A DNA stretch of 63,040 nucleotides, the filler included, from Thermodesulfobacteriota bacterium (lineage in GTDB: Bacteria; DASVDK01), in assembly GCA_036381125.1 (NCBI GenBank). It is 8 parts of 8 records of this genome, joined end to end, with 100 filler letters (N's around TTAATTAATTAA, not from the genome) between each part and the next. Parts side by side here need not be neighbours in the genome. Positions count along the whole stretch, not along the records: positions 11,997 to 28,027 come from DASVDK010000371.1; 7 more parts are not named here. The stretch is one strand, 5' to 3'. Within the stretch, counting starts at the first letter, position 1; every line of letters begins with the position of its first letter. The translations under genes and the position numbers were made by a program. The notes under the pieces are model-generated. The model had not been told where the DNA came from, ran no database searches, and saw only the letters and a program-made list of their open reading frames with translations. Shown here piece by piece: positions 11,897 to 55,863 of the stretch.

Positions 11897-11996
11897 NNNN
11901 NNNNNNNNNNNNNNNNNNNNNNNNNNNNNNNNNNNNNNNNTTAATTAATTAANNNNNNNNNNNNNNNNNNNNNNNNNNNNNNNNNNNNNNNNNNNN
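11897..11996. other. Artificial contig spacer
   Basis: 44 N + TTAATTAATTAA + 44 N. Identical spacers lie at 28028-28127, 32736-32835, 37907-38006, 40684-40783, 48432-48531 and 55764-55863. Confidence 0.98.
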
Positions 11997-11997
11997 C

Positions 11998-13281: not shown

Positions 13282-14564
13282 ACGGCGCGGGGCCCTGGCA
13301 CAGCCCGGGACGGTGGCTGGTGAACCCGTCCTACTGGGAGCCGGAAGCGCTGGCCGGGCGGGCGGGCATGCCGTCCGAGATCCGCTTCATCGACTGCACG
13401 CTCAGCGAGGGGGACGACTGCGTCGGCCACCAGCTCAACTGGAACACCCGCCTCGCGCTGCTCGAGCGTCTGGACGGCATCGGCCTCGGCGAGATCACCA
13501 TGCCGAGCCACGTGACCTTCGGCGAGGAGCGGGACATCGTCCGCGCCTACCGGCGGCTCGGCCTCAAGACGCGGATCGTCGCCAAGGGCCCGGGCGTCGT
13601 CCCCCCGCTGCGGGGCGACTGGCGGGAGAAGATCGACCGGCACGTCGACCTGGGGTGCGACGTCATCAGCCCGATCTTCAAGTGGCCGTTCGAGGACACC
13701 GTCTCGGACTTCGCCGGCGCCCTCTCGAAGCAGGCGGTCGTCGACGCCATCGGCGAGAGCGTCGCGTACATGAAGTCGAAGGGGGTGCGCGTCGTGCCCT
13801 GGATCGTCGACGCCATGCGCACCCGGGTCGACACCGCCTGCCGGTTCTTCAAGGCGATGGCGGAGGCCGGCGCCGACGGCGTGTACGTCGTCGACAGCCG
13901 CGGCAACAGCGTCCCCCTGGCGACGCGGCTCTTCGTTCGCCGGGTGCGCGAGGCGGTGGGCCCGCGCTGCGACATCTACGTCCAGCACCACAACGACCTC
14001 GGCGTCGCGACCGCCAACGCGCTCGCGGCGGTCGAGGGCGGCGCCACCTGGATCGACTGCTCGGTGCTCGGGATCGGCGACCGCGGCGGCTGCGTGGCGC
14101 TCGAGGAGGCGGCCCCGCTGTTCGAGATGTACGGCATCCGCACCGGGATCAGGCTGTCGGCGCTCTACGACCTCTGCCGCTTCGTCCAGGGGATCTACGG
14201 GGTCGCCCTCCCCCCCTGGAAGCCGATCGCCGGCGAGAACTGGAACAAGGAGGAAGGGGCCGGCCACCTCGAGGGCTCCGACGCCGCGGAGGCGACGATC
14301 GGCCTCAACCCGGCGGTCGTCGGCCGCGAGTTCGAGGGGGTCATCGGCTCGAAGCTCCTCTTCGGCCGCGAGCGCAGCAGCGCGCCGACCGACGACCCCG
14401 TGTTCCTGCGCGAGCTGCTCCGCCGCTGGGGCCTCGAGTGCTCCGAGGCCCAGTTCCAGACCATCGTCCTGCGCACCCGGGCGGCCGTCGCGACCTCGCC
14501 GGGGCGGCATTACGTCACCCTGGACGAGTTCCGCGCGATCTGCGACGGGGTGCTCGCGACGTAG
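13278..14564 (+). CDS. DRE-TIM (homocitrate/isopropylmalate synthase, HMGL-like) protein with an atypical active-site motif
   Basis: IDCTLSEGDD, VDSRG, QHHNDLGVATANALAAVEGGA, GIGDRGG, PPWKPIAGE; ATGA coupling to the PrpD-like gene. Confidence 0.75.
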   Translation: MNGAGPWHSPGRWLVNPSYWEPEALAGRAGMPSEIRFIDCTLSEGDDCVGHQLNWNTRLALLERLDGIGLGEITMPSHVTFGEERDIVRAYRRLGLKTRIVAKGPGVVPPLRGDWREKIDRHVDLGCDVISPIFKWPFEDTVSDFAGALSKQAVVDAIGESVAYMKSKGVRVVPWIVDAMRTRVDTACRFFKAMAEAGADGVYVVDSRGNSVPLATRLFVRRVREAVGPRCDIYVQHHNDLGVATANALAAVEGGATWIDCSVLGIGDRGGCVALEEAAPLFEMYGIRTGIRLSALYDLCRFVQGIYGVALPPWKPIAGENWNKEEGAGHLEGSDAAEATIGLNPAVVGREFEGVIGSKLLFGRERSSAPTDDPVFLRELLRRWGLECSEAQFQTIVLRTRAAVATSPGRHYVTLDEFRAICDGVLAT

Positions 14565-14617
14565 ACGAGCGAGCCGGCACCGGGGCCGGACGTCTCGCCA
14601 TCCACCGAGGGGACGCC

Positions 14618-15619
14618 ATGAGCATGAGCAGACGACTTCGACGCGCGGCGGCGCTCGCCGCCGGGCTGGTCCTGATGATCGGGCTCGCGGCCGGGCCGGC
14701 CGGCGCCGACACCTGGCCGACGCGGCCGATCACGATCCTCGTCGCCTTCAACGCGGGCGGCAGCGTCGACCGCATGGCCCGAGGGCTCGCGCCCTACCTG
14801 TCGGCCGAGCTCGGCAAGCCGGTCACGGTCGTGAACCGGCCGGGCGCGGGCGGCCAGGCCGGCACCACGTGGTTCCTCGCCCAGCCGGACGACGGCCACA
14901 CGCTGATGATCTCGCCGGCCACCCCCTACCTCGCCACGAACATCCTGATCACCGGCGCGAAGTACACGCTCGACGACTTCGCGTTCGTGAACGCGCAGTG
15001 GATCGACTACGCCTTCCTCGCGGTGCCGAAGGACCGGCCGTACCGATCGCTGAAGGACCTGGTCGACGCGATCCGGGCGAACCCCGGCAAGGTGTCGACC
15101 GGCGTGACCTTCGGCTCCGCGGGCCACGTCAGCACCCTGGTGCTGCTCGAGGCGCTGGGGCTGCCGCACGACGCGGTCCGCATCGTCACGTTCGACGGCG
15201 GGGGGCCGCTGCGCACGGCGCTGGCCGGCGGACACGTCGACTTCTCGATCCAGCAGGCCGAGGGGGCCGACACCATCAAGGACTTCGTCCGCCCGCTCGC
15301 CGTCCTCCTCGACGAGCGGACGCCCGACTGGGATGCCCCGCCGATCAACGAGGCGCTCGCGCCCTACGGCGTCACCGTGCCGATCGTGAGCGGCTCGGTG
15401 CGGGCGCTCGTCGCCCCGGCCGGCTTCAAGGCGAAGCACCCGCAGAGCTTCCAGAAGCTCGTCGACGCCTACAGGAAGGTGCTCCAGAACCAGGAGTTCC
15501 AGGCGTGGCTCAGGTCGAACGCGATCGACGGCGCGTGGCACGGCCCGGAGCGGACGACCGAGATCATCAGGGCCAACTTCGACGTGCTCCGGAAGTACCG
15601 GCACCTGCTGAAGGACTGA
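14618..15619 (+). CDS. Tripartite tricarboxylate transporter substrate-binding protein (Bug/TctC)
   Basis: Signal peptide; WPTRPITILVAFNAGGSVD, NRPGAGG, DGHTL, ALAGGHVD. Confidence 0.9.
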   Translation: MSMSRRLRRAAALAAGLVLMIGLAAGPAGADTWPTRPITILVAFNAGGSVDRMARGLAPYLSAELGKPVTVVNRPGAGGQAGTTWFLAQPDDGHTLMISPATPYLATNILITGAKYTLDDFAFVNAQWIDYAFLAVPKDRPYRSLKDLVDAIRANPGKVSTGVTFGSAGHVSTLVLLEALGLPHDAVRIVTFDGGGPLRTALAGGHVDFSIQQAEGADTIKDFVRPLAVLLDERTPDWDAPPINEALAPYGVTVPIVSGSVRALVAPAGFKAKHPQSFQKLVDAYRKVLQNQEFQAWLRSNAIDGAWHGPERTTEIIRANFDVLRKYRHLLKD

Positions 15620-15620
15620 G

Positions 15621-15646
15621 CCGGGCCGCGAGCGACCGCGGCCCGG
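15621..15646 (+). terminator. GC-rich hairpin after the TctC gene
   Basis: CCGGGCCGCG-agcgac-CGCGGCCCGG, a perfect 10-bp stem without a U-tract. Confidence 0.4.
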
Positions 15647-16083
15647 TGCCCCGGCACTCGAGCTGGAGCCCCGCGCCGGCGGTCCCGGTCTTCTCGTGGA
15701 GGAGCTGCCCGCAGGGGCCGGCGCCGCCACCGGCGCCCCTCGACCGCCCCGAGCCGCTCGGCCGCCTCGACGCTCGGCTCCTCGCGCTTCACCCCGGCGT
15801 GTTCGGCAGGAACCCGTCGTCGTTCGCGATCGCAACAGCGGGCGACGCGGGCTGAAACGGCCCGCATCGCCCGCCGCCACAGGCCGTCCTGCGGCGGATC
15901 GGCCGGCGTCCGCCGACAACGCCTCGATTCCAGGCCCCTTTCTCGGGCGCGTCCCGACCGCCGCGGCGCGGAACCGGGCCCGGTCCGCGTCGTGCAGGGC
16001 GACCGGCATCGATGCCGGACCGACCGTCGCGCGTCGACGGCAGACCAGCGGGCGGATCCGCGGGGTCCGGGCGAGGGCCGATC

Positions 16084-16690
16084 GTGGACGACGTGACACG
16101 ACTCCTCACGAGCTACGGGGCGCCGGTCTTCTTCGCGGGTGTCCTCGTCGATCAGCTCGGCGCGCCGCTGCCCGGGCTCCTCTTGCTCCTCGCCGCGGGC
16201 GTGCTCGGGGAGGCCGGGCTGCTGCATCCGGCCGGCGCGTTCGGGCTGGCGGTCGCCGCCGCGGTGCTGGCGGACCTCCTCTGGTTCGAGGTCGGCCGCC
16301 GCTACGGGCTGCGGGTGCTCGCGCTCGTCTGCCGCGTCTCGCCCGAGCCGGACGGGTGCCTCGGCGGCACGCGAGCGCTCTTCGGCCGGCACGGGCTCCG
16401 CTCCCTCCTCGTCGCGCGCTTCGTCCCGGTGCTCGGCATCGCGATCGCCCCTCTGGCCGGCAGCCTCGGCGCGGATCGCATCCGCTTCCTCCTGTACGAC
16501 GGCGCGGGGGCGCTCCTCTGGGCCGGCGGGTACATCGGGCTCGGCTACGTCTTCGCCGATCGGCTCGAGGCGCTCGCGGCCTCCGCGAGCCGCGCCGGGG
16601 CGGCGCTCGCCGCGGCGAGCGCCGGCGCGCTGGCGGCGTACGCTGTCTACGCCCGGCTCCGGCGTCGGGCGCGCCGCGCCCCGAGGCGGG
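16084..16690 (+). CDS. DedA/VTT family membrane protein, probably C-terminally truncated
   Basis: QLGAPLPG, ADLLWFEVGRRYG, LLVARFVP, FLLYDGAGALLW; similarity ends near 16680 and the frame stays open to 17085. Confidence 0.65.
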
Positions 16691-16812
16691 GCACCGAGCC
16701 GCCGCGCGGCCCGGCCGATGCGCCCGCGCTCCCGGCGGGCCCCGGCTCGGCACGGCCCGCGGCGCTGCTCGCTCTCCGACCGACCCGGCCGCACGTCCAC
16801 CACGGCGCAATG

Positions 16813-16829
16813 TTGGCCGGCCCGTTGCA
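16813..16829 (+). promoter_or_regulatory. Sigma54 (-24/-12) promoter
   Basis: TTGGCCGGCCCGTTGCA with GG-N10-GC spacing, about 40 nt upstream of the ATG at 16869. Confidence 0.6.
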
Positions 16830-16868
16830 CGCCCGGGCAGCGGGGCACGAACAATCGGAGGTGCGTCC

Positions 16869-17543
16869 ATGTCACGGATGCCGCCCGATGCACCGACCGG
16901 CGCCGAGGTTCGCATCCCGTCCGGAGCGGTACGGCTCGAGGGCAGCCTGGAGATCCCCGGCGGCGCCGAGGGGATCGTCCTCTTCGCGCACGGCAGCGGC
17001 AGCAGCCGACACTCGCCGCGCAACCGGCGAGTCGCCGCCGCGCTCCGGGACGCGGGGATCGCCACGCTCCTGTTCGACCTGTTGACGGAGCGGGAGGCGA
17101 GCGACCGCGCGAACGTCTTCGACCTCGGCCTGCTCGCGCGCCGGCTGGCCGACGCGACGGCCTGGGTCCGTGCCCGGCAGGCCACCTCCCACCTGCCGGT
17201 CGGCTATTTCGGCGCGAGCACGGGCGCGGCGGCGGCGCTGATCGCCGCCGCGGACGACGCGGGCGTGGCCGCCGTCGTCTCGCGCGGCGGCCGCCCGGAC
17301 CTCGCCGACGCCGTCCTCCACCGGGTCACCGCCCCGACGCTCCTCATCGTCGGCGGGGAGGACGTGCCCGTGCTCGACTGGAACCGGCTGGCGTACGAGC
17401 GGCTCACCGGGGACAAGGCGCTCGAGATCGTCCCGGGCGCGGGGCACCTCTTCGAGGAGCCCGGCGCGCTCGAGCGCGTGACCGAACTCGCGACGCGCTG
17501 GTTCACGCGCCACCTGACGCGCCGGCGCCTGCTGGGCGAGTAG
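16869..17543 (+). CDS. Alpha/beta hydrolase (PRTase-associated, dienelactone hydrolase-like)
   Basis: FAHGSGSSRHSPRN, GYFGASTG, SRGGRPDL, HLFEEPG; GGAGGT RBS. Confidence 0.88.
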   Translation: MSRMPPDAPTGAEVRIPSGAVRLEGSLEIPGGAEGIVLFAHGSGSSRHSPRNRRVAAALRDAGIATLLFDLLTEREASDRANVFDLGLLARRLADATAWVRARQATSHLPVGYFGASTGAAAALIAAADDAGVAAVVSRGGRPDLADAVLHRVTAPTLLIVGGEDVPVLDWNRLAYERLTGDKALEIVPGAGHLFEEPGALERVTELATRWFTRHLTRRRLLGE

Positions 17544-17545
17544 CG

Positions 17546-18235
17546 ATGGCCGGTCCGGCCCGCCGGTTCCGCGACCGCGAGGACGCCGGCCGGCAGCTTG
17601 CCGCGAGGCTCGCGCACTACCGCGACCAGGACCCGGTCGTCCTGGCGCTGCCGCGCGGCGGCGTCCCGGTCGCGGCGCCGGTCGCCGCCGCGCTCGACGC
17701 CCCGCTCGACATCGTCGTCGTGCGCAAGATCGGCGCGCCCGACCAGCCGGAGCTGGGCCTGGGCGCCCTCGTGGACGGCGACGACCCGCAGGCGCTCCTC
17801 AACGCCGACCTCGTCGAGCGGCTCGGCGTGTCGCGCGAGTACCTCGACGAGGAGGTCGCGCGGCAGCTCGCCGAGGCGCGCCGCCGCGAGGCGCGCTACC
17901 GGGGCGGGCGGGCCCGGATCCCACTGGCGGGGCGCACGGCGATCGTCGTCGACGACGGGATCGCGACCGGCAGCTCCGTCCGGGCGGCGCTGCGGAGCCT
18001 GCGCCGGTCGAGGCCGGCGCGGCTCGTGCTGGCCGTCCCGGTCGCCCCGGCCGACACGGTCGGGGCGCTGCGCGACGAGGTGGACGACCTCGTCTGCCTC
18101 GCAACCCCCTCCCCCTTCCTCGCCGTCGGGTACCACTACGAGGACTTCACCCAGCCGGACGACGAGACGGTGATCTCGATCCTCGCCCGCGCCCGGGCCC
18201 GCTCGGAGGCCGGGCCGCGCCCGGACCGGCCCTAG
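17546..18235 (+). CDS. Phosphoribosyltransferase family protein
   Basis: FRDREDAG, LALPRGG, VRKIGAP, IVVDDGIATGS PRPP-binding motif. Confidence 0.9.
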   Translation: MAGPARRFRDREDAGRQLAARLAHYRDQDPVVLALPRGGVPVAAPVAAALDAPLDIVVVRKIGAPDQPELGLGALVDGDDPQALLNADLVERLGVSREYLDEEVARQLAEARRREARYRGGRARIPLAGRTAIVVDDGIATGSSVRAALRSLRRSRPARLVLAVPVAPADTVGALRDEVDDLVCLATPSPFLAVGYHYEDFTQPDDETVISILARARARSEAGPRPDRP

Positions 18236-18275
18236 GGGAGCCAACGGCTTCGAGGCTCACCTGCCGCAGCGGTTC

Positions 18276-18842
18276 TCAGCCGACCAGGCCCCGCTCGCGA
18301 CGCAGGAGCTGGTCGAGCTGGTCGATCTGCTCCGGCCCGAGCGCGCTCTTGAGCCGCGGGAAGACGACCGACTCCTCCTCCGAGACGTGCTCGGCGATGA
18401 GCTTCCGGAACCCGGTGACCCCCTTCGTCCAGTTCTCCCCCTCCTTCGGCATCTGCTCGAGCTGGAAGAGCGCCACCTTCATCTGGCTGTGCTCCTCGTA
18501 CAGGTCGGGCACCGTCTCGCGGAGGTTCGCCTGCTGGAAGACGACCGGGTAGAGGGCGTTCTCCTCGGCCACCGCATGCTCGGTCAGCGCGCGCCTGACC
18601 TGCGCGAGCAGGTCGGCGCGCTCGCCGGGATCGCTCGACTCCACGGCCCGCTGGAGGAGCTGGTCCACCTGCCGGTGCTCCGCGACGAGAAGCGCGAAGG
18701 GGTCGCCCTCGGCGCCCGACTGCCCGGCCGTCCGCGTCCCCGTGGTGCCGCAGGCGCTCCCGCCGAGCGCCGTTGCGACCAGAAGACCACTCGCCAGTGT
18801 TCCGAACTGCCGCCTCGAGAGCGGCGTGCCGTTCTCCGACAT
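18276..18842 (-). CDS. Hemerythrin-like (HHE) protein with a Tat lipoprotein signal
   Basis: SRRQFG..GGSAC; EH, HAVAEE..YP, EEH, HVSEEE..FP; AAGGAGG RBS. Confidence 0.8.
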   Translation of the reverse strand: MSENGTPLSRRQFGTLASGLLVATALGGSACGTTGTRTAGQSGAEGDPFALLVAEHRQVDQLLQRAVESSDPGERADLLAQVRRALTEHAVAEENALYPVVFQQANLRETVPDLYEEHSQMKVALFQLEQMPKEGENWTKGVTGFRKLIAEHVSEEESVVFPRLKSALGPEQIDQLDQLLRRERGLVG

Positions 18843-18943
18843 GCGCTGCGCCTCCTTGTGGCGCCTCCCCGCGCCGGACGTTGGGCACGCGAGCGGCGGG
18901 CCGTATCGTGGCGAGGACTACCGGCGCGGCCGCCTCGGGGGCG

Positions 18944-19939
18944 CTATTCGTACCGCACGGCCCAGTAGAAGTCCCCGGCGGGGAGCGGCACCTCGGGGAG
19001 GGTCGCGTCCATCCGGCGGCCGCGCTTCGCATCGGACACCTGAACGTGGACCGGCAGGACGATCGCGTACGGCGCGGGGAGGCGGCGGAAGAGCCGGCGG
19101 GGGATGCCGAAGCCGAAGCGGACGTGGCCGCCGCCTGCGAGCACGACGAGCTGCACGCGGTCGCCGCCGCGCTCGAGCGCGCGCGCGGCGGTGTCGGCCA
19201 TGGTCTCGTCCCAGAGCACCTGCACCTCGTAGAAGCGATCGAAGCGAGCGCTCCCCGGCCCGTGCGCCGCGAAGACCGCCTGCAGGTAGGCGCGGTGATA
19301 CGGGTCGTCGAGGCGCATCTCCGGGAGCCGGCCGGCCAGCTCGGGCGGCAGGCCGTCCACGCCGTGCCGCCTCACGGCGCGCACGAGGTCGGCCTCCGCG
19401 TTGAGCGCCAGCAGGCGGATGCCCGCCTCGCGCGCGAACCGGACGATGCCGGCGTACGGCTCCCACTCCCCCCAGCTCTCGGCCCAGACCTCGCGGAACG
19501 CCGCCTCGTCGATCTCTCCCCGGACGAAGGCGTCGGCCTTCGCCTGGTCGGAGCGCCTGAGCATCTCCAGCCCGAGGACGAGCCTGCCGGGGGCGCGCGC
19601 CGCAAGGCCGCGCAGGACGGCGAGCTGGACCGCGTGGTCCTGGGGGCTGTCGTGCGTCTCGCCGACGTAGACGACGCGCAGGGCCGCGAGGTAGTCGAGC
19701 AGCTCGCTCTCGCTGACCAGCCGCCCGGTCCGACCGTGCAGGATCTCGCCGACGGCGAGGGAAGCCGGATCGCGATACGGGGAGGTGGGGTCGGCCGATG
19801 CCCCGTCCGGCCCGACCGCGACGCGCTCGCCGGCCGGCGCCCGGTCGTGCGTGGCGCACCCCATCGCCGCGGCCAGCGCCGCGACCGCGACGATCGCCGC
19901 ACCCCGTCCGGCCCCGCGCGTCCGGCCCGTTCTCGTCAC
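18944..19939 (-). CDS. ChaN family lipoprotein
   Basis: Lipobox AMGC; VVYVGETHD, LGLEM, QVLWDETMA, LAGGGHV..GIPRRL; start approximate. Confidence 0.85.
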   Translation of the reverse strand: MTRTGRTRGAGRGAAIVAVAALAAAMGCATHDRAPAGERVAVGPDGASADPTSPYRDPASLAVGEILHGRTGRLVSESELLDYLAALRVVYVGETHDSPQDHAVQLAVLRGLAARAPGRLVLGLEMLRRSDQAKADAFVRGEIDEAAFREVWAESWGEWEPYAGIVRFAREAGIRLLALNAEADLVRAVRRHGVDGLPPELAGRLPEMRLDDPYHRAYLQAVFAAHGPGSARFDRFYEVQVLWDETMADTAARALERGGDRVQLVVLAGGGHVRFGFGIPRRLFRRLPAPYAIVLPVHVQVSDAKRGRRMDATLPEVPLPAGDFYWAVRYE

Positions 19940-19990
19940 GAGAGCATGGTGCCCGCAACCTGCGCGCGCGCGCAAGCCGGATTCGTCGCG

Positions 19991-20752
19991 TCAGAAGCTC
20001 AGGCTCAGGCGCACCGAGTACGTGGGGACCCGCGACCAGCTCCCCTCGGCCACGACCGTGAGGAGCCCGAGCCGCAGCCTGGCGCCGGCGAAGAGGCGAT
20101 CGTCGGTCGGCCGCACCTCGCCGAGGCCGGCCGGCGGCTCCGCGGCGGCGCCCTGCGGCTCGGCCTCGACCCAGACGCGACCGATGCCGAGATACGGCGT
20201 GACCGGACCGAGACCCTTGCTCGCCGAGAGGTCGATCGACGTCGAGGTGAGGTCCAGCTCGTCGACCCCCGCGAGCTCGGTGTGGGCCCCCCGGAGGGCG
20301 ACGGCCGGCCAGACGGCACCGCCCCGGATGACGGCCCACTTGACCTCCCCGCCCCAGAGGCGGATGTTCGAGTCGGCGACGTCGCCGTAGAGCCCGCCCA
20401 GCTCGAGCCCGAGCGGCAGCCCGATGTTCACGTGCAGCTTGGGCACCACGAGGAACGACGGCGGCGAGCCGTCCCTGATCGCCCGCCGCCAGTAGTCGCG
20501 GTCGTCGTCGATGTCGAGCGCCGTCACCTCGAGCCCGGCATCGACGTGCGGCACCGTCAGGCGCATCCCGAGCGACTCGGCCGGCGCGACCTGGAACGCG
20601 GAGATCGCGAGCCCCAGGTCGCGCGAGAGGTCGCGGAACTGGTCCTGCGTGAGGCCCTCGATGACCAGGTCGTCGTCGCCGGCCAGGGCCGGCCGGGGGC
20701 CGAGGGCCGCGAGGACGACGAGGAGAAGGGCGACGGCACGGAGGGCCGGCAT
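19991..20752 (-). CDS. Putative outer-membrane beta-barrel protein
   Basis: Signal peptide, amphipathic beta pattern, C-terminal RLSLSF. Confidence 0.7.
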   Translation of the reverse strand: MPALRAVALLLVVLAALGPRPALAGDDDLVIEGLTQDQFRDLSRDLGLAISAFQVAPAESLGMRLTVPHVDAGLEVTALDIDDDRDYWRRAIRDGSPPSFLVVPKLHVNIGLPLGLELGGLYGDVADSNIRLWGGEVKWAVIRGGAVWPAVALRGAHTELAGVDELDLTSTSIDLSASKGLGPVTPYLGIGRVWVEAEPQGAAAEPPAGLGEVRPTDDRLFAGARLRLGLLTVVAEGSWSRVPTYSVRLSLSF

Positions 20753-21570
20753 CAGAACCAGACCCTCAGCCCGACCTGACCGGCGACCTGGTCGGGGAAG
20801 CTCGCCTCGACGGTGAGCCCGATCCGGCGCTCGGCGCTGAAGTAGACGTCGAGGCCGACGAAACCGCCCACGTGCTCCCTCGCCCGGAGCCTGAGTTCGC
20901 CCGCGGCCGGACCGGACGAGACGCGCGCGTCGGCCTCGGCGTCGGAGTACCGCAGCCCCAGGTACGGCCGCGTCGTGTGGATGCGCCACGAGACCCCGGC
21001 CCTCGCCTCCCACTCCCGCCACCGGAACGTCTCGTCCGCGCGGACCGTGTCGCCGCCGGCGCCGGTGAACGCCACGGCGGCAGCCTCGCTCTCGAACTGC
21101 AGGTACCGTCCCTCGAGGAAGAGCGTCGTGTCGTACCGGTCCTGCTCCCGCGACAGCACGATCCCCGCCCCGCCGCCGTAGGCGAGCCCGAAGTCGCCGT
21201 CGAAGTCGGCGTCCTCCGACGGGCTGTCGAGGTCCGCCTGGCCGACCAGACCGTAGAACAGCAGGCCGCGGGCCGGCCTGAAGGTGGCGCGGGCGAGCAG
21301 GCGAGTCGACCGGACGTCGAAGTCGAACCGCTCGCCCGCCCCGCGCTCGGTCACGCCGCGCCGCAACTCGGATGCGAGCACCTCGAGGCCGAACGGGCTC
21401 GTCCGCTCGCGGGTCGGGCCCTCCGGCGGCTCGCGGCGCTCGTCGGACGGCAGGCCGTACCGGAACCAGCGCAGCCCCTCGAGGCCGTCGGGCCTCTCGT
21501 CCGCCCCCAGCGCGAGCTGCGGGACGGCGAGAACGAAGACGAGCGCTGCGACGGACACCAGGCTGGCCAC
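20752..21570 (-). CDS. Putative outer-membrane beta-barrel protein
   Basis: GGGAGG RBS and GTG; signal peptide; alternating beta strands; C-terminal GLRVWF. Confidence 0.7.
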   Translation of the reverse strand: MASLVSVAALVFVLAVPQLALGADERPDGLEGLRWFRYGLPSDERREPPEGPTRERTSPFGLEVLASELRRGVTERGAGERFDFDVRSTRLLARATFRPARGLLFYGLVGQADLDSPSEDADFDGDFGLAYGGGAGIVLSREQDRYDTTLFLEGRYLQFESEAAAVAFTGAGGDTVRADETFRWREWEARAGVSWRIHTTRPYLGLRYSDAEADARVSSGPAAGELRLRAREHVGGFVGLDVYFSAERRIGLTVEASFPDQVAGQVGLRVWF

Positions 21571-21672
21571 GCTCCCTCCCACACGCCGCCGGCGCGACGC
21601 CGATGCGCCCGTCGTGCCGGCCGCCGCCGCGGCTTCACGCCGGAGCCGAGGCCAACGGGCCCGTGCTCCTCG

Positions 21673-22563
21673 TCACCGGCCGCCACGCGGCGGCCGGGAG
21701 GGCGAGACGCGGAGCGGCACGACCGGTGCCCCTGTCCGCGGCCTCCCGTCCCGGGAGGCCAGGAAGAAGACCACGCTCATCGGCACGAGCCAGAAGAGCC
21801 CTCCGCCCACCCACATCACGAGGCCGCCGGCTCGTTGATCGGCGACGACCGCCTCGAGGTCGGCGCCGGCGATCGCGGCGTACGTGGCGTAGAGCGGGAC
21901 CTGCGCGAAGCTGAGGAGCGCGCCGATCACGTCCCCTTCGACCATCGGCGGCACGAGGTAGAGGAGCGCGGGGCCGTAGCCGAGCGGCCGCCGCCCGCCG
22001 GTCGGGTGGATCACCGGCCACCAGTAGGCGAGCGCCGTCCCGAGGAGCAGCGCGTGCTCGAGGTCGTGCACGAGCGCCGGACCCTGCGCGGCATCGTAGA
22101 AGGCCGGCAGGTGCCAGAGGGCGAGGTTGGTGATATAGAGGAGGCTCGCCACGCCCGGGCGGGCGAGGAGGCGGAGGAGCCGTCCGGCCGGGCGGCGGGC
22201 GACGAAGAGCCTGCCCGTCGCGCGACGGAGGGGACCGGGAAGTCCCCAGAGGATCGGCACCATCGGGGCGCCGAGCCAGAGGAGCGGAGGCGCCACCACG
22301 GCCAGGAGGAGGTGCTGGACCATGTGGGCGGAGAAGAACCGCTCGCCCGCGGACGCGATCGGCGAGACGACGGCCAGCCCGAGCGCCGCGAGCCCGCCCG
22401 CGTAGCAGCCGGCGCGCCATGCCGCCGGGCTCGCCCGGCCGCGCCCCCGCCGTCCCAGCCGTCGCCACCCGGCGACGTAGAGCGCGGCGGAGAGGGAGAG
22501 GCCGAGGGCGAGGACCGGCTCGAGGGAGAGCGGCGCGGCCTGCGGGGCAAGCGGGTGGGCCAT
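21673..22563 (-). CDS. ctaG: Cytochrome c oxidase assembly protein (Caa3_CtaG family)
   Basis: FSAHMVQHLLL..APPLL, WHLPAFYD, HDLEH, DQRAGGLVMWVGG. Confidence 0.88.
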   Translation of the reverse strand: MAHPLAPQAAPLSLEPVLALGLSLSAALYVAGWRRLGRRGRGRASPAAWRAGCYAGGLAALGLAVVSPIASAGERFFSAHMVQHLLLAVVAPPLLWLGAPMVPILWGLPGPLRRATGRLFVARRPAGRLLRLLARPGVASLLYITNLALWHLPAFYDAAQGPALVHDLEHALLLGTALAYWWPVIHPTGGRRPLGYGPALLYLVPPMVEGDVIGALLSFAQVPLYATYAAIAGADLEAVVADQRAGGLVMWVGGGLFWLVPMSVVFFLASRDGRPRTGAPVVPLRVSPSRPPRGGR

Positions 22564-22566
22564 GCG

Positions 22567-23580
22567 TCAACGCGGCATCACGGCCGCCGTCTCGGCCTCG
22601 GCCATCGGCAGCGGCTCGTCGGTCGGGAGTCGGCGGTAGCTCAGGACCGCACGCAGCCGCAGGCGCTGGCCCGGCATGGACGGCAGCGGCAGCGCGATCG
22701 CCTCCCGCCGGACCTCACCTGGGCGGAGCGCGGTCGAGCGCTCGGCGACGGCGACGATCTCCCAGGGCAGCGCCGTCTCCCTGCCGGCCGCGTCGAGACC
22801 GACGTTCCGGTAGAGCCGCCGCTCGGCGGCGAAGACGAAGCCGGAGGGATCTTCCGCGGTCACGTCCAGGACCACCACCGAGCCCCAGGGTCAACCGTCG
22901 GGGACGCGATGGCCGGCCAGGTTGTGGACCTCGACGATCGCGACCGGACCGTCCGCGTCGGTGCCGGCCGTCATGCGGACGGTGGCCGCCCGGCGGAGCA
23001 TGGCGGGCGACCGGCTCCCTTCGAAGCGGTGCGAGCCGCCCGGCATGTGGCACTGCTGGCAGCTCACGCCGGCCGCGGCCGCGGGGCTCTCCTGCCAGCC
23101 GTCGTAGACGGTCGAGCACGCGACGGCCGGCGGCTGCCAGCGATGGCAGCGCGCGCACGCCTCGGCCGGCGCCGCCGTCTCGCCTGCCAGAGAGCGAACC
23201 GGATGCGCCGTCGGGCTGCCGCCGTGGCACGCGACGCAGGTCACGCCCGGCGCCGGTTCCCCTGCGATGAGCCGGCCGGCCGCTGCGGCCGGGTCGTGTG
23301 CGGCCGGCGTGTGACAGCCGAGACACCGGCTGGCGACGGCGGTTGCCGGCGCGCCGAAACGGTGGAGCGAGGCGAAGAACCCCTCCGTGGCCGCGGCCTT
23401 CGCGTGCGGCGAGGCGCGCCACGCCTCGACCTGCCGGTCGTGGCACGCGACGCAGCGCTCGGGGTCGTCGGGATCGGCCACGGGGGCCGGTCGCGGCCCG
23501 GCCGGCGCGGCTGCCCGCAACGCCGGCGCCGCGGCCAGCAGCGCCGCGAGCCCGATGGCGGCCAGCCGCGGACCCGTCAT
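22567..23580 (-). CDS. Pentaheme c-type cytochrome with in-frame UGA (putative selenocysteine; ExtKL-like)
   Basis: Signal peptide; CVACH, CLGCH, CVACH, CARCH, CQQCH. TGA at 22893-22891 lies in AGHRVPDG*PWGSVVVL and the same frame continues to 22567. Confidence 0.8.
22856..22880 (-). promoter_or_regulatory. Candidate bacterial SECIS hairpin
   Basis: mRNA +11 to +35 after the UGA reads CGGUGGUGGUCCUGGACGUGACCGC; it can pair GUGGUC/GACCGC, or CGGU/ACCG plus GUC/GAC, with a G-containing loop. Confidence 0.5.
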
Positions 23581-23912
23581 CCGCCGGCGAACCGGAGGGC
23601 GACGGCCGCCTCGGTTCGGACGCCGCGGCTGTCCCAGGCCGCGACGCTCACGAGCCCCTCCTCGACGGCGCGCAGCTTGAAGCTCACGAGCGGGTTGTCG
23701 GCGAGGGCCGGCGTCATGTCGTAGCGGCAGACGACCGACCCGAGGTACCGCGCCTCCATCACCCGGATGAAGTACGGCTCGGCCGCCTGCACGAACCGGC
23801 CGGCCACCTTCTCGAGGCCGGTCCGCACCGGGTGGCGGAACTTCACGTACACCGGGATGACGTCGCCACGGCGGACCTCCGGCGGCAGGCGGATCTCCGG
23901 GGCGGGAAACAT
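23577..23912 (-). CDS. soxZ: SoxZ-like sulfur carrier subunit
   Basis: VRRGDVIPVYVKFRHPVRTGL..PYFI..ALADNPLVSFKL..WDSRG; AAGGAG RBS; ATGA coupling to the cytochrome. Confidence 0.75.
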   Translation of the reverse strand: MFPAPEIRLPPEVRRGDVIPVYVKFRHPVRTGLEKVAGRFVQAAEPYFIRVMEARYLGSVVCRYDMTPALADNPLVSFKLRAVEEGLVSVAAWDSRGVRTEAAVALRFAGG

Positions 23913-23917
23913 CGGGA

Positions 23918-24148
23918 CTACTCCTTCGCCCGCCCGTCCTCCGCGCCGTGCCCGTTGCCCGCGGCACGCGTCCGCGCGCGCCAGGCGAGGTAGCGCTTGA
24001 GGTCGAGCGGCATCTCCACGCCGTGCCTGAACTTGAGGTGGATGAAGTGGACGACGCCGAAGAGCGTCCAGGCGAAGAAGAGGACGAGCGCCGTCCACTC
24101 GATCGCGTTGGGAGCCGTCTGCCAGAATGCCGGGATCTCGGGTTCCAT
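23918..24148 (-). CDS. Small single-TM membrane protein
   Basis: GGGAGG RBS; MEPEIPAFW..WTALVLFFAWTLFGVVHFIHL. Confidence 0.65.
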   Translation of the reverse strand: MEPEIPAFWQTAPNAIEWTALVLFFAWTLFGVVHFIHLKFRHGVEMPLDLKRYLAWRARTRAAGNGHGAEDGRAKE

Positions 24149-24168
24149 GCCTCGAACCTCCCGTCCCG

Positions 24169-24306
24169 CTAGAAGTACGCGGGACCGGTCGCGCCGAGGA
24201 CGTTGGCCAACGCCTTGGCGACGTTGTACAGGGCGTCGGCGGCGAGCACGGCGAGGTTCAGCCAGGCGGCGGCCAGGACGATGCGGAAGACGATCGGGCT
24301 CGGCAT
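24169..24306 (-). CDS. 45-aa hydrophobic small protein (not in the ORF track)
   Basis: GGAGGA RBS; MPSPIVFRIVLAAAWLNLAVLAADALYNVAKALANVLGATGPAYF. Confidence 0.6.
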   Translation of the reverse strand: MPSPIVFRIVLAAAWLNLAVLAADALYNVAKALANVLGATGPAYF

Positions 24307-24378
24307 GGGCCTTTTCCTCCGTTGCAGGACGGACCCCGTCACGCTGCCTGCCCGGGCAAAGCCGGGCGCCGCGCTCTG

Positions 24379-24666
24379 CTAAAGCGGGATCGAGTAGTCG
24401 AGGCCCGGCCCCGGGCCGCCCCAGTACGAGAGCGTGTAGAAGGCGCCCCAGACGGCGAGCCCGAGGATCACGGCGAAGAGCCACCAGTTGACGACCCCCT
24501 CCAGCTCGCGCGTCCCGGAGTACCGATAGGTGTAGACCGGGCCGCGCTCCGCGAGCGTCTCCGGGTCGTACACGTCGCTGACCGGGTAGCGGAAGTGCGT
24601 CTCGACCGGCGGTTGCTGGCCGTCCCCCATGGGCGGATGAGCCCGGTCCGGGTGATCACTCGACAT
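24379..24666 (-). CDS. Stand-alone CcoP/FixP N-terminal-like membrane protein (no heme motif)
   Basis: AAGGAG RBS; YSGTRELEGVVNWWLFAVILGLAVWGAFYTLSYW resembles the FixP_N pattern (DGIxELxxxxPxWW plus TM helix). Confidence 0.55.
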   Translation of the reverse strand: MSSDHPDRAHPPMGDGQQPPVETHFRYPVSDVYDPETLAERGPVYTYRYSGTRELEGVVNWWLFAVILGLAVWGAFYTLSYWGGPGPGLDYSIPL

Positions 24667-24877
24667 CGTGCCGCTCCTTCTCGAGCATGGTGAACTTCGG
24701 CGCCTCCGCGTCGCGCGCGAGGCCGGCGAGGACGAAGAGCACCAGGAAGCAGATCGTCGCCAGGCCCGCGGCGAAGGCGCCGCCGTAGGCGACGATGACC
24801 GCGCGGGCGCCCGGCCCGAGCGCATCGATCGCGTCGGCCAGCGCCGTCGGAAAGGCCGTCACGTCAGGCATCGGCAT
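24656..24877 (-). CDS. Small membrane protein, CcoS-like
   Basis: GGAGGAG RBS; TM helix followed by GLARDAEAPKFTML; lies directly after ccoO. Confidence 0.5.
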   Translation of the reverse strand: MPMPDVTAFPTALADAIDALGPGARAVIVAYGGAFAAGLATICFLVLFVLAGLARDAEAPKFTMLEKERHDVE

Positions 24878-24892
24878 CGTCTCCTCCGGGCG

Positions 24893-26581
24893 TCAGCGCG
24901 CCGGCATCCGGTAGACGGGAAGGTTCCGGTCCGTGAGGCCGGTCCACTGGTAGGCCGCGGCCGGGGTCCGGTGCGCCTCCTCCGGGTCGTCGAGCGCCTG
25001 CTTCACCGAATCGGGGAACGGCTCGGGCGTCGCGTAGAGCGGGTCGTGATAGGCCGACAGCGACAGGACATGATAGGCGAGCGCCCAGCGGTCGTTCTCG
25101 TCCGGGAAGGCATCGGCGAACGACGGCATCGGGGTTCCGTCGAGGCCGGTCGACATCGTCCGGAAGATGTCGCGAACGCCGGCGCCCGACTTGAAGAGGC
25201 CGGTCGTGAGGTCGGCCGGCAGAATGGGGAAGCCGAAGTCGTCCGTCAGGTCGGGGGCCGACGGCCCGTCCCCCTTCCCTCGTTCGCCGTGGCACTGCGC
25301 GCACTGCGCCTCGTCCCACACCTCCTTGCCCCGCGCCAGCAGCTCGGCCGACGCCGCCGGCGGCTGGGCCGCTATGGCGATGGAAGGGGGCGGCGCTTCT
25401 TGCTGCCAGCGCTCCGAGAAGGTCTTGATGTACTGGATGACCGCGGCGCGCTCCCTGAACGGCAGCTCGTGCCAGGTCGGCATGGCCGTGCCGCGGACGC
25501 CGTTGGTGAGGGTCCGCAGCAGGTCGCCGTCGGTCGGGAGCGATCCGCTCGGCGTCGTCCGGAACTTGAAGACGCCGAGCTGGAAGTCGCGCGGCTGCAC
25601 GTCGAAGAAGGTCGCCGCCGCCCCCCACCCGTCGCCCTTCGCACCATGGCAGCCGATGCAGCGGTGCTCGTAGACGACCTTGCCGAAGGCGACCTGGTCG
25701 GGCCCCCCCTCGAGGGTGAAGTTCCCGTCTGCGAAGGCCCGCTGCGACACGAAGAGGTCGCGCCACTTCCCCCGGTTGGTGCCGAGCTTCTGGATGTAGG
25801 CGACCAGCGCCGGCAGCTCCTCGGTCGGCGCGAGGAGGGTGAGCGTCTTCCCCTCGAACGTCCGGAACTGCCCGAAGCGGAGCACCGGGCGCTTGCCACG
25901 GTTGTCCACGAGCCGGCCGTGGAGCGTGTCGAAGATCGGGACGAAGGTGAGGCCGTCGGGGCCGGGGAAGAGCGGGAGCACCTGGGCCCCGTTCGGGTCG
26001 AGGCCGAGGGCGCGGAGGGCCGGGGTGTCGGGGAGCGCCGGCTGGCCGTCCTCGCCCGTCGTCAGCTCGACCGTCACCGGCGTGCGGAAGAGCCACGGGA
26101 AGGCAGGCATGTTCGAATCGGGGACGACCAGGCGCGGGTCCCAGTGGTGGGCGTAGTGCCAGCCGTTCGCGTACTTGAGGCCGACCCGCGTGAGGTCGGG
26201 ACCGATCCGCTGGGTCCCCCAGAAGTGAGGGGCGTCGAAGCTGTACTCGCCCGCCTCGCTCACCGGGCCCCAGCGCAGCGTCTCGTCGTTGACCGGGCGA
26301 ACGTACTGGGAGTGGCAGTACCAGCACCCCTCCCGCTGGTAGATCCGCCGCCCCTGCAGCTCCAGCGGCGTATAGGGCGTCGCCTTCGCCTGGATCCACT
26401 TCAGCTCCCCGAGGTCGGTGCGGACGACGCGCGTCACCGTGTCGCGCCGCGTCTCGGGGAGCATCGCCGGGAGCACGCCCTGGATGAAGAGGGCGAGCAG
26501 CAGGGCGAAGACGCCGGCGACGAGGATGACCCCCTTCGGTCCTTCGACGGCCTCCATGAGACGGCGAAACCATCGCAACAC
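24893..26581 (-). CDS. ccoO: cbb3-type oxidase subunit II fused to two extra cytochrome c domains
   Basis: PYTPLELQGRRIYQREGCWYCHSQYVRP, WGTQRIGPDL, SNMPAF; then CIGCH..GTAMP and CAQCH..GTPMPSF. Confidence 0.88.
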   Translation of the reverse strand: MLRWFRRLMEAVEGPKGVILVAGVFALLLALFIQGVLPAMLPETRRDTVTRVVRTDLGELKWIQAKATPYTPLELQGRRIYQREGCWYCHSQYVRPVNDETLRWGPVSEAGEYSFDAPHFWGTQRIGPDLTRVGLKYANGWHYAHHWDPRLVVPDSNMPAFPWLFRTPVTVELTTGEDGQPALPDTPALRALGLDPNGAQVLPLFPGPDGLTFVPIFDTLHGRLVDNRGKRPVLRFGQFRTFEGKTLTLLAPTEELPALVAYIQKLGTNRGKWRDLFVSQRAFADGNFTLEGGPDQVAFGKVVYEHRCIGCHGAKGDGWGAAATFFDVQPRDFQLGVFKFRTTPSGSLPTDGDLLRTLTNGVRGTAMPTWHELPFRERAAVIQYIKTFSERWQQEAPPPSIAIAAQPPAASAELLARGKEVWDEAQCAQCHGERGKGDGPSAPDLTDDFGFPILPADLTTGLFKSGAGVRDIFRTMSTGLDGTPMPSFADAFPDENDRWALAYHVLSLSAYHDPLYATPEPFPDSVKQALDDPEEAHRTPAAAYQWTGLTDRNLPVYRMPAR

Positions 26582-26593
26582 GCCGTTGTTCCC

Positions 26594-28027
26594 CTAGCCC
26601 GTCGCCCCGGCCGTGGCCCGCGCGCCGGCCGGCTGCGCCGGGGCCGGCTCCCCGGGGCGCGGCGGCTCGCGCTTGACCGGCAGCGGCTCGCCCCAGAGCG
26701 CCGTCATCATGAAGTCGATCACCATGAGGCTGATGCCGATGTCCATCGTGATGCCCGTGAACGTCCGGAACCACCACCACGGGTAGCGCGCGATGACCGA
26801 CTTCACCCACTCGGTCCCGGCCCGCAGCTCGAAGCCGTTCATGAGCCCCTGGGCGGTGAGCGTGAGCCCCATCGCGGTGACCCCGGCGAGCATGAACCAG
26901 AAGGCCCAGTTGCCCATCCGGTAGCTCCAGAGCTTTCGCCCGACGAGCCGCGGCCAGACGAAGAACGCGCCGCCGATCGCCCACAGGACGAACGTGCCGA
27001 AGACCGTGAGGTGCGAGTGGGAGATGACGAAGTCGGTGAAGTGCGTAACCTTCTGGAGGCTCCGCAGCGCCTCCATCGATCCCTGGAAGCAACCGACCAG
27101 GTAGAGGAGCGATCCGGCGATGAGGAACTTGGCCGGGAGGTTGCGGCCGAACTCGTGCCACTTGCCGATCATCGTCCCGAAGAAGTTCTGCAGCACCGTC
27201 CAGACCGGGATGATGAGGAAGACGCTCGAGACGATGGCGATCGTCTCGGCCCAGTCGGCGATGGGGCTGTAGAGGTAGTGGTGGATCCCGAGGAACGGGT
27301 ACCAGTACGCGAGCGCCCAGAACCCGACGAGCGAGAGGCGGTGGCTGTACAGCGGGTTGTTCACCGCGTGCGGCAGGAAGTAGTAGATCGCCACGTAGCC
27401 GAGCGGGGTGGTCCAGAGGCCGACGGTGAAGTGGAGGTAGAGGCCGTGGAGCGCGGCATTGTTCACGCCCGGGAGCCAGTACGGGAGGACGAACTGCCCG
27501 AGCGGCCACCAGAGGGTCGTCCAGACGAAGGTCCCCATCAGGTACCAGAGGGCGACGTAGACTCTCGGCTCCCGGCGCCGGATCACGGTCGCCACCACGG
27601 CGATCGCCGTCGCCACGATGCAGACGTACTGGACGATCGTCCCGGGGAGGGGCGAGTCGGCCACCTCGAGCCCCTTGTTGTAGCCGGCCAGGATGGCGAC
27701 GAGCCCTCCCAGGGTCGAGAGGGTCCAGAGCCAGAAGACGGTCCAGAGGAGCCGCGGGCCGCCCCAGACCGGTCGCCCCGTGAGTCGCGGGAGCGCGTAG
27801 AGCCCGAGCCCGAACGCGAGCGAGCTGAAGGCCCCCCAGATGACGCCGTTCACGTGGAAGGGGCGCATCCGGCCGTAGGTGAGCCAGGAGACGCCGCCGA
27901 GGAACTCCGGGTAGACGATCTTGGTCGAGACGAGGACCCCCATCGTCGGGAAGACGAGGAGCCAGAGGAACCCGGCGAGGAGCCAGGCGATGACGACGGG
28001 GCGGTCGACGACCTGGTCGGCGATCTC
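26594..28027 (-). CDS. ccoN: cbb3-type heme-copper oxidase subunit I (5'-partial)
   Basis: YGRMRPFH, LYLHFTVGL, YPFLGIHH, HFTDFVISHSH: all six His ligands and the helix-VII Tyr are present. Confidence 0.9.
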   Translation of the reverse strand, partial: EIADQVVDRPVVIAWLLAGFLWLLVFPTMGVLVSTKIVYPEFLGGVSWLTYGRMRPFHVNGVIWGAFSSLAFGLGLYALPRLTGRPVWGGPRLLWTVFWLWTLSTLGGLVAILAGYNKGLEVADSPLPGTIVQYVCIVATAIAVVATVIRRREPRVYVALWYLMGTFVWTTLWWPLGQFVLPYWLPGVNNAALHGLYLHFTVGLWTTPLGYVAIYYFLPHAVNNPLYSHRLSLVGFWALAYWYPFLGIHHYLYSPIADWAETIAIVSSVFLIIPVWTVLQNFFGTMIGKWHEFGRNLPAKFLIAGSLLYLVGCFQGSMEALRSLQKVTHFTDFVISHSHLTVFGTFVLWAIGGAFFVWPRLVGRKLWSYRMGNWAFWFMLAGVTAMGLTLTAQGLMNGFELRAGTEWVKSVIARYPWWWFRTFTGITMDIGISLMVIDFMMTALWGEPLPVKREPPRPGEPAPAQPAGARATAGATG

Positions 28028-28127
28028 NNNNNNNNNNNNNNNNNNNNNNNNNNNNNNNNNNNNNNNNNNNNTTAATTAATTAANNNNNNNNNNNNNNNNN
28101 NNNNNNNNNNNNNNNNNNNNNNNNNNN

Positions 28128-32735: not shown

Positions 32736-32987
32736 NNNNNNNNNNNNNNNNNNNNNNNNNNNNNNNNNNNNNNNNNNNNTTAATTAATTAANNNNNNNNN
32801 NNNNNNNNNNNNNNNNNNNNNNNNNNNNNNNNNNNGAATTCCTGACGCCACGGGCTGAGGCGAAGTCGGGCCACGTGCTCCAGGTGGCTGAGATGTTCGA
32901 GACGTGGATCCTGCGCACGACGCCCGAGACCGGCACGCCGGCCACGACGCCGGCGCCCGCGGCCGCGACGCCGGCGGGAGGTGCGCG

Positions 32988-37709: not shown

Positions 37710-38197
37710 GCGGCTACGTCGCGCCTGGGAATGGCTTCGGGCCGCGGGGAAGTTCCTCGCGCCGGCGACCACGTGGGTCGAGTTCCCAATCGGTGCCGCA
37801 GTCGACGCAGTGCTCCCGTTCGGGGCCTGGAATGACCGTGCGGTCAGGCCGGTGGACCTCCGTCCGGTATTTCTGTGTCTGCTCGTGCAGGCAGGTCTTG
37901 GGGTCTNNNNNNNNNNNNNNNNNNNNNNNNNNNNNNNNNNNNNNNNNNNNTTAATTAATTAANNNNNNNNNNNNNNNNNNNNNNNNNNNNNNNNNNNNNN
38001 NNNNNNAGGGCTCGACGAGCCGGTAGCGCTCGGCGAGCCGCCGCTGCTCGGCTTCGGGGCAGAGGACCTTGACGATGCGGTGCGCCATGGCGCCGCCATT
38101 CTAGCCAGGAAGCCCCTCTCGGGCAGCCGACCGACGGCGCTTGACAGGCGCCGTCCGGTCCTGTATGGAGCGCGACACCTGCTCGGGAGGTGCCGCG

Positions 38198-40681: not shown

Positions 40682-40783
40682 GANNNNNNNNNNNNNNNNN
40701 NNNNNNNNNNNNNNNNNNNNNNNNNNNTTAATTAATTAANNNNNNNNNNNNNNNNNNNNNNNNNNNNNNNNNNNNNNNNNNNN

Positions 40784-55737: not shown

Positions 55738-55863
55738 GCGCCCTGGGCAATCCTGCACATGGANNNNNNNNNNNNNNNNNNNNNNNNNNNNNNNNNNNNN
55801 NNNNNNNTTAATTAATTAANNNNNNNNNNNNNNNNNNNNNNNNNNNNNNNNNNNNNNNNNNNN

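Follow-up and report, generated by a model that had tools for sequence, protein, structure and literature searches.

The window analysed here is a stretch of 63,040 nucleotides (nt) from the metagenome-assembled genome (MAG) of a Thermodesulfobacteriota bacterium (GenBank assembly GCA_036381125.1), in which eight parts are joined through runs of N at 11897–11996, 28028–28127, 32736–32835, 37907–38006, 40684–40783, 48432–48531 and 55764–55863, and adjacency across these runs is meaningless. On contig DASVDK010000371.1, which fills window positions 11997–28027, the minus strand carries a gene at 22567..23580 (terminal TGA at 22567–22569 included) whose 337 codons specify a pentaheme c-type cytochrome of the MccSep/ExtKL type, a putative selenoprotein, as judged from translation, the NF040886 profile and phmmer. 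The frame opens with an ATG at 23580–23578 and runs to the TGA at 22569–22567; the only internal stop found on translation is the TGA at 22893–22891 (feature 22891..22893, codon 230), which is aligned with U325 of Geobacter MccSep and almost certainly encodes selenocysteine (Sec230) in a compact, divergent member of this family. A previous sequence-only reading of the window had joined two open reading frames (ORFs), 22891..23967 and 22567..22878, across this codon; one gene in one frame is indeed present, but 22891..23967 opens at a GTG and is spuriously extended, the true start of the gene being the ATG at 23580.

The read-through product has 337 residues, five CxxCH motifs, one further cysteine outside these motifs (C155, within VACSTVY) and the Sec230 context AGHRVPDG-U-PWGSVVVL, all of which had been described from the sequence and are reproduced by translation. 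A signal peptide is predicted by eye for residues 1 to ~24 (23509..23580), with a basic n-region, an Ala/Leu-rich core and the sequence RAA-A. The heme motifs, all read on the minus strand, are CVACH for heme 1 (C43–H47; 23440..23454), CLGCH for heme 2 (C86–H90; 23311..23325), CVACH for heme 3 (C115–H119; 23224..23238), CARCH for heme 4 (C142–H146; 23143..23157) and CQQCH for heme 5 (C174–H178; 23047..23061); the motif of heme 1 is invariant in alignments A3 (14 sequences) and A4 (39 sequences), as are the first cysteines of all five, and those of hemes 4 and 5 were located by alignment with 9wt8 as well as by translation. By homology, heme 2 would be the active-site heme with His/Cys ligation (role: PMC13510729), and Cys155 (23116..23118) is aligned by phmmer with C239, its distal ligand in MccSep. 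The C-terminal part, approximately residues 199–337 (22570..22986), is predicted by an AlphaFold2 (AF2) model and by Foldseek to be a beta-sandwich domain of the immunoglobulin-like (Ig-like) type bearing the DGUP loop.

It has been reported that MccSep (multiheme cytochrome c selenoprotein), which is ExtKL (GSU2937-2936) of Geobacter sulfurreducens (Mihara et al., Sci Adv 2026, PMC13510729; PDB 9wt8), is periplasmic and tetrameric and contains five hemes, and that its Sec was proven by mass spectrometry and selenium content, in the peptide context GH-x-I-PDGUP. In this enzyme heme 2 is ligated by H122 and C239, the only two residues called strictly conserved; the enzyme cannot do without U325, which sits on the DGUP loop of the Ig-like domain at its C-terminus, and K372 is important for Vmax (PMC13510729). 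MccSep reduces polysulfide and, less well, selenite, and is needed for respiration of elemental sulfur (S0); 637 homologues in five clades are known, mostly from Desulfobacterota and Nitrospirota (PMC13510729), and the enzyme has so far been tied mainly to anaerobic sulfur reducers of these groups from aquatic habitats. The family also appears in the selenoproteome review literature (PMC13188914). The sequence-only reading had described ExtKL as a five-heme cytochrome with Sec and a link to sulfur/polysulfide and chalcogen chemistry, its Sec in a similar GHxxPDG-U-P context; this is right according to PMC13510729, and both the Sec column and this context in the window protein match the experimentally verified Geobacter peptide.

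The homology to ExtKL that had been proposed holds across the TGA. The profile NF040886 ('multiheme c-type cytochrome (seleno)protein ExtKL') matches residues 86–324 with profile positions 157–409 of 423 at E 3e-31, through the TGA, and the downstream piece alone matches it at E 5e-5. In addition, phmmer retrieves the MccSep entries 9wt8, 9wt9 and 9wta-c from the PDB at E ~2e-12, aligning U230 with U325 and C155 with C239 of 9wt8 (query avaCstvy, target ptqCCtsy), and U230 also falls on the U of the ExtKL equivalogs L024, L025, L026, L031 and L034. C155 is invariant in the close clade and present in all Sec-type and Cys-type relatives examined; by alignment, the 'extra Cys' of the sequence-only reading thus appears to be the counterpart of the heme ligand C239. 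The AF2 model is confident only in the C-terminal beta-sandwich (strands 199–334, pLDDT, the predicted local distance difference test score, ~69–90); its best Foldseek match is the pentaheme cytochrome c552 5ze8 (E 1.4e-11), the other matches being Ig-like sandwiches, and no MccSep entry (9wt8) was returned by Foldseek against the PDB to April 2026.

Sec or Cys at the Sec column and the cysteine at column 155 occur together among the relatives. The exhaustive search of representatives gave 1362 matches at E <= 1e-3, of which the three at E <= 1e-30 are all close-clade fragments, and from 150 listed relatives 38 were aligned, hand-picked from ranks 4–148 with preference for higher ranks and compact lengths. 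Among these 38, four stop at the Sec site and two, the full-length relatives P0037 and P0038, are Cys-type (P-[DN]-G-C-P), and all six have Cys at column 155, whereas the other 32, which are 'GHxxPTG' forms, all lack Cys in precisely that column; in P0063 and P0181 a Cys stands one column away, and P0036 has PTGC at the Sec site and lacks C155. Likewise, 16 non-Sec rows from genome contigs carry variable non-Cys residues at the Sec column (the 63-residue match L042 being left out of this set). Such variability had been named beforehand as a finding that would speak against Sec; it is confined to distant, ~25% identical GHxxPTG paralogues, and these do not count against Sec here because the heme-ligating Cys is missing in them as well.

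A quick maximum-likelihood tree of 52 rows, with support from the Shimodaira–Hasegawa-like approximate likelihood-ratio test (SH-aLRT) only, places the window clade (4 rows, 100%) inside a set of 18 rows, of which 13 are Sec, 2 are Cys and 3 are non-Sec, and a branch with 97% SH-aLRT parts this Sec/Cys-side set from the other 34 rows, all non-Sec; the exact placement of the window clade is unsure because its composition deviates from that of the alignment. On the Sec/Cys side of this tree stand two tandem non-Sec pentaheme paralogues of a Nitrospira sp. MAG (L022:694-3157), with PVTHP and PDGDP at the Sec site, which may be close outgroups or derived forms that have lost Sec. The source lineage is very isolated among the GTDB representatives searched: of 60 relatives, one belongs to the same genus and the rest are related at the domain level only, this same-genus MAG (L021, identical with L068; 88% amino-acid identity) being the only close genome in the GTDB-representative collections.

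Both the TGA and the sequence behind it are conserved. A word-indexed protein search gave nine matches, one of them the window's own 229-residue fragment, and all eight non-self metagenome homologues (61–86% identity) stop exactly at HR[VL]PDG. The 107 residues after the TGA are matched by 11 sequences, all of them ORFs of 96–103 residues with 63–91% identity and 41 invariant columns, and four of these downstream ORFs have longest contigs equal in size to those of upstream-half matches (3349, 41084, 3251 and 2065 nt), which suggests that the two halves lie on the same contigs. In the sister genome the TGA stands at the identical codon, and the comparison with it gives 12 synonymous and 8 non-synonymous codon changes in the 107 downstream codons and 27 and 31, respectively, in the 229 upstream codons; by these counts, the downstream part is constrained at least as much as the upstream part. 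Two facts would suit a true stop, namely that gene callers give two ORFs in every metagenome copy and that a GTG lies five codons past the TGA. However, the sister genome retains the PWGS between the TGA and this GTG, gene callers start the downstream ORF at different places from copy to copy, each an ordinary Val or Met codon, and PDGUPWG occurs three times in the published MccSep tables (Data S1-S5 of PMC13510729), in a related longer clade.

The TGA is no assembly slip. As to its presence in reads, a Logan contig of run X1 (6046 nt) is identical across the whole gene including the TGA; X1 may be the source sample, and this contig is therefore not an independent confirmation. A second X1 contig spans 22567–22840 and differs from the window at 26 listed sites, 17 of them third codon positions as counted from the coordinates. 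A pseudogene, a split gene and an assembly error were rejected on the conservation of the TGA together with both halves, and a genome-wide reading of TGA as a sense codon was rejected on the observation that the cytochrome, the SoxZ-like gene and neighbouring genes all end in TGA.

Of the machinery for Sec synthesis and insertion, this MAG (96% complete, 382 contigs, 73% GC) encodes selA at 494 bits, selB at 339 bits and selD at 351 bits, all above their cut-offs. The selD gene lies outside the window, on contig C156 (locus L017:400-1440), and has one in-frame TGA of its own, which falls in the canonical active-site sequence ...AGU...; SelD can therefore be produced here only if UGA is decoded as Sec. 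The same-genus genome contains a tRNA-Sec (71.7 bits, anticodon UCA).

Immediately downstream of the UGA of the cytochrome, a core hairpin resembling a selenocysteine insertion sequence (SECIS) lies at 22856..22875 on the minus strand, with the stem strands GUGGUC and GACCGC around an 8-nt loop, CUGGACGU, as defined by folds of 60 nt and by conservation. The sequence-only reading had noted a hairpin about 11–35 nt after the UGA; the hairpin exists and is conserved, but its 6-bp stem spans nt 19–38 counted from the U of UGA (window 22875–22856), in the window as well as in the sister genome. A near-identical hairpin, with one loop base different and at an equal distance from UGA, is found in eight distinct ExtKL-type loci (L024, L025, L026, L031, L034, L046, L047 and L051), so that all 10 distinct Sec-type sequences, drawn from two clades, have it; the motif matches in L036, L040 and L041 were left out as chance matches in other frames that fold differently. 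The window gene has 77% GC and the ExtKL genes 47–49%, and five of the seven hairpin codons, together with all four third positions inside the stem, are identical between them, whereas at identical amino acids outside the hairpin only 30–33 of 74–80 third positions agree. An extended lower stem of the element is weakly supported by the 60-nt folds (nt 4–53; 22841..22890), in which the window gene and the ExtKL clade pair nt 4–5 (or 4–8) with nt 49–53 using different sequences. After the UGA of this genome's selD, too, there is a hairpin (nt 12–32), whose GGUCC...GGACC core is similar, and these two examples give no more than a hint that the selD and cytochrome hairpins share a SelB target. Rfam returned just three chance-level matches (E > 1) around the TGA, and a scan of metagenome contigs returned no close-clade DNA, only ExtKL-type and non-Sec relatives. 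There is good support for SelB-dependent decoding of Sec at a conserved hairpin, which probably recruits SelB-tRNA(Sec).

Several results weigh against the assignment to a Sec-containing MccSep/ExtKL enzyme. The NF040886 score of 108.4 bits (84.7 bits in the genome search) stays below the equivalog cut-off of 250, while the bona fide relative L025 reaches 462 bits. The position of K372 falls on I265/V266 in both HMMER and MAFFT alignments and has no basic counterpart (the window protein has WEIVAV, and WEI is invariant in the close clade), and R83 is probably also without a counterpart, F68 being reached by ungapped extension in a poorly aligned loop; substrate and kinetics may therefore differ from those of MccSep. 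The AF2 model, built on a 14-row alignment, has a mean pLDDT of 61.6 and low confidence in the heme domain. Shuffled sequences reach folding energies as good as that of the 81-nt stretch around and after the UGA (z -0.25), the support for the hairpin is conservation without covariation, the close clade being represented by two DNA sequences, and the hairpin overlaps the conserved peptide VVLDVTA. In the read data, the independent runs X2–X4 gave short contigs only, none of which bridges the TGA. Finally, of the machinery sought, selA, selB and selD were found and selC was not: aragorn found no tRNA-Sec in this MAG at default settings and only noise when relaxed, the best matches of Rfam RF01852 on the MAG are tRNA-Ser or tRNA-Leu, a regular expression for the anticodon loop and T-loop matched six sites in the MAG, none a tRNA, an Rfam scan of the loci of selA, selB and selD found no tRNA-Sec, and BLAST of the sister's tRNA-Sec with its flanks against this MAG found no locus. 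The last result, in which the tRNA and its flanks are both unmatched in a MAG of the stated completeness, is why the locus is read as probably unassembled rather than absent. Weighed against the preceding evidence, these points leave it highly likely that the TGA is decoded as Sec and that the product is an exported five-heme cytochrome of the MccSep/ExtKL family working by Sec-Cys-heme chemistry.

In the mechanism proposed on this basis, the TGA at 22893–22891 would be decoded as Sec, with SelB-tRNA(Sec) recruited by the hairpin 19–38 nt downstream, and translation would yield a c-type cytochrome of 337 residues, belonging to the MccSep/ExtKL family, that is exported and carries five hemes. 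On the model of the homologous Geobacter enzyme, these hemes would sit in the N-terminal helical domain, heme 2 being ligated by His90 and Cys155. The Sec may attack a chalcogen–chalcogen or chalcogen–oxyanion substrate (polysulfide and, less well, selenite) and hand the adduct to the heme-bound Cys, and the resulting Se-S(n)-S intermediate would be resolved by electrons moving along the heme chain. We infer export, heme ligation, the substrate and the direction of electron flow, and the Sec-Cys-heme chalcogen chemistry is likewise attributed to the window protein by alignment with MccSep, a homologue that has been solved structurally and mutagenised.

The genes around the cytochrome bear on its redox partner. 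All listed neighbours are on the minus strand with short gaps. Upstream lies a SoxZ-like gene (23577..23912; 111 residues, no signal peptide, AAGGAG Shine-Dalgarno; Pfam SoxZ 50.4 bits against a cut-off of 25, E 1.9e-13), whose TGA stop overlaps the cytochrome ATG in ATGA at 23580–23577, and downstream, 3 nt past the cytochrome stop, a gene for a Caa3_CtaG-type oxidase assembly factor begins with the ATG at 22563 (21673..22563; E 4e-55, TIGR02737 72 bits against a cut-off of 279); the coupling and the spacing had both been pointed out earlier and are confirmed on the sequence. The SoxZ-like protein scores 42.2 bits against TIGR04490 'SoxZ_true' (cut-off 76) and has 11 non-self homologues at 72–92% identity in addition to the window's own record, two of them on contigs equal in size (1489 and 15205 nt) to those of cytochrome pieces. 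Searches of the genome for SoxY, DsrA, true SoxB and the FCSD flavin-binding domain found none of them. Further upstream are three or four small, membrane-like ORFs with high GC at third codon positions within 23918–24892 (24656–24877, 24379 to ~24660, 24169–24342 and 23921 to ~24148), which gave no Pfam match, a gene that joins FixO to two cytochrome c domains (24893–26581, domain search) and, truncated where the contig ends, the gene for subunit I of a divergent cbb3-type oxidase (26594–28027; ccoN model 193 bits, cut-off 583).

The putative oxidase at 24893–28027 is a very divergent member of the C family of heme-copper oxidases. Oxidases of the cbb3 type have no CuA site, and the pairing of a Caa3_CtaG-type factor with such an oxidase is unusual. 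Downstream of ctaG are two signal-peptide ORFs that end in Phe and resemble outer-membrane beta-barrels (20752–21582 and 19991 to ~20700), a ChaN/Cofac_haem_bdg heme-binding protein (18944–19990) and a hemerythrin-domain protein (18276–18917). The sister contig shows the same ORF pattern, and the runs with near-identical DNA carry soil, sludge and mixed-culture metagenome labels. Since the gene is co-oriented and tightly packed with the oxidase, SoxZ-like and CtaG genes, its redox partner is probably the oxidase module, in contrast to Geobacter with its conduit through the outer membrane; this neighbourhood, together with the sample labels, argues for a possible role away from classical anaerobic S0 respiration.

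As to the biological role, the reading that fares best, which we would put a little short of an even chance, is the canonical one of a periplasmic polysulfide or selenite reductase serving anaerobic sulfur respiration or chalcogen detoxification, the oxidase neighbourhood being coincidental. It draws on the conservation of the catalytic Sec, the heme-ligand Cys and all five hemes, it is the only function demonstrated for the family (PMC13510729), and family contexts vary anyway, as at the ExtKL-type locus L025, where the neighbours are an ArsR/Fe-S regulator, a CBS-domain protein, ChrA and TauE. It sits less well with the missing equivalent of K372 and probably of R83, and with a gene order that is retained in the sister genome; moreover, the SoxZ-like family and the cytochrome clade are about equally small and span similar identities, which argues for a dedicated module.

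The same selenoenzyme might instead run oxidatively, with sulfide, polysulfide or another reduced chalcogen oxidised, electrons passing via the hemes to the cytochrome c domains of the cbb3-type oxidase and the SoxZ-like protein serving as an accessory or carrier-like partner, and this we regard as unlikely. In its favour, the oxidase genes, the small membrane proteins, the SoxZ-like gene, the cytochrome and CtaG are co-oriented and tightly spaced, the ATGA overlap couples the cytochrome to the SoxZ-like gene, and terminator-like sites are not commoner than in shuffles (three found, 1.9 expected), all three lying inside coding sequence. The authors of the MccSep study also raised a possible mechanistic relation to the reverse of thiosulfate oxidation by TsdA/SoxAX (PMC13510729), and the soil, sludge and mixed-culture labels differ from the aquatic anaerobic settings of most MccSep genomes. 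However, there is no experimental hint of reversibility, and gene adjacency is not wiring. The failure to find SoxY, true SoxB, DsrA and the FCSD flavin-binding domain in the genome means that no sulfur-oxidation pathway surrounds the enzyme, and the SoxZ-like protein, having no signal peptide, may not reach the periplasm. A broader and similarly doubtful proposal is that a soil lineage of high GC, aerobic or microaerobic, recruited a compact MccSep-type enzyme to a terminal-oxidase operon, where together with an orphan SoxZ-like protein it would couple the oxidation of reduced sulfur or selenium species to O2 reduction or protect the oxidase from them; if true, such a respiratory module would depend on selenium, oxidise sulfur or handle chalcogens, and differ from anaerobic S0 respiration.

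Least of all survives the reading of the TGA as a true stop, giving a 229-residue cytochrome and a separate protein of ~100 residues, or else a pseudogene or an assembly error: beyond the fragments called by gene finders and the nearby GTG it can appeal to the tRNA-Sec not assembled in this MAG, but the TGA and both halves are conserved down to 61–63% identity, Cys-type relatives are full-length, read-through is experimentally proven in the Geobacter homologue (PMC13510729) and selD of the same genome itself needs UGA decoding, which makes it very improbable.

If the Sec-decoded, MccSep-type reading is accepted, the gene is a selenoprotein missed through splitting by gene callers, and gene calling had likewise left every metagenome relative found, 8 for the N-terminal and 11 for the C-terminal part, as a fragment. 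The range of MccSep would be widened by a small, deeply divergent and shortened clade in an isolated lineage, with one genus-mate among the GTDB representatives searched. The neighbourhood of a cbb3-type oxidase, CtaG and a SoxZ-like protein would supply a concrete candidate redox partner for MccSep-type enzymes, and the protein offers a natural minimal scaffold, without K372, for asking which residues Sec-Cys-heme chemistry needs.

The family itself is already known and characterised; the divergent clade and the oxidase context are new. The window protein shares with MccSep/ExtKL the five aligned CxxCH motifs, Sec in GH-x-[IV]-P-D-G-U-P, a Cys at the C239 position, an Ig-like domain at the C-terminus with the Sec loop, the SECIS-like hairpin after the UGA and a signal-like N-terminus. 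On the other hand, it is only ~25–27% identical to bona fide ExtKL equivalogs and has 337 residues against 410–436, i.e., it is ~75–100 residues shorter, with shorter loops between hemes 1–2 and 2–3 and ~26 residues fewer between hemes 3–4. Its subclade seems to be absent from the published MccSep set, as ACSTV, TAEDPSGF, RLYRNVGLD and the accession prefix of the sister genome each have no occurrence in approximately the first 400 characters per cell of Data S1-S5, the range over which PDGUPWG was counted. The new genomic context claimed by the sequence-only reading is borne out: in place of the porin/rhodanese ext cluster of Geobacter (extHIJKL), the gene here has a SoxZ-like gene and ctaG for neighbours, within a cluster that encodes a cbb3-type oxidase. 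The high GC of the genome and the soil or sludge labels of the runs likewise depart from typical MccSep.

Among non-selenium enzymes, cytochrome c552 of Thermochromatium tepidum (5ze8), the best phmmer match in the PDB (E 3e-15), and the wider non-Sec GHxxPTG pentaheme family (the PHC family of work on cable bacteria, PMC11976967) are alike in overall fold and five-heme core and have in common with the window protein the H-x-x-P before the Sec column; both differ in having T-G and a variable residue instead of D-G-U and in lacking the heme-ligating Cys. The SoxZ-like neighbour resembles the true SoxZ of the SoxYZ carrier in matching Pfam SoxZ over its full length and in the lack of a signal peptide of its own, and differs in scoring below the TIGR04490 cut-off and in standing in a genome in which SoxY and true SoxB were not found. 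TsdA and SoxAX, in the comparison drawn by the MccSep authors (PMC13510729), also have a catalytic Cys bound to c-type heme iron and perform sulfur–sulfur chemistry, while being unrelated in fold and sequence and containing no selenocysteine.

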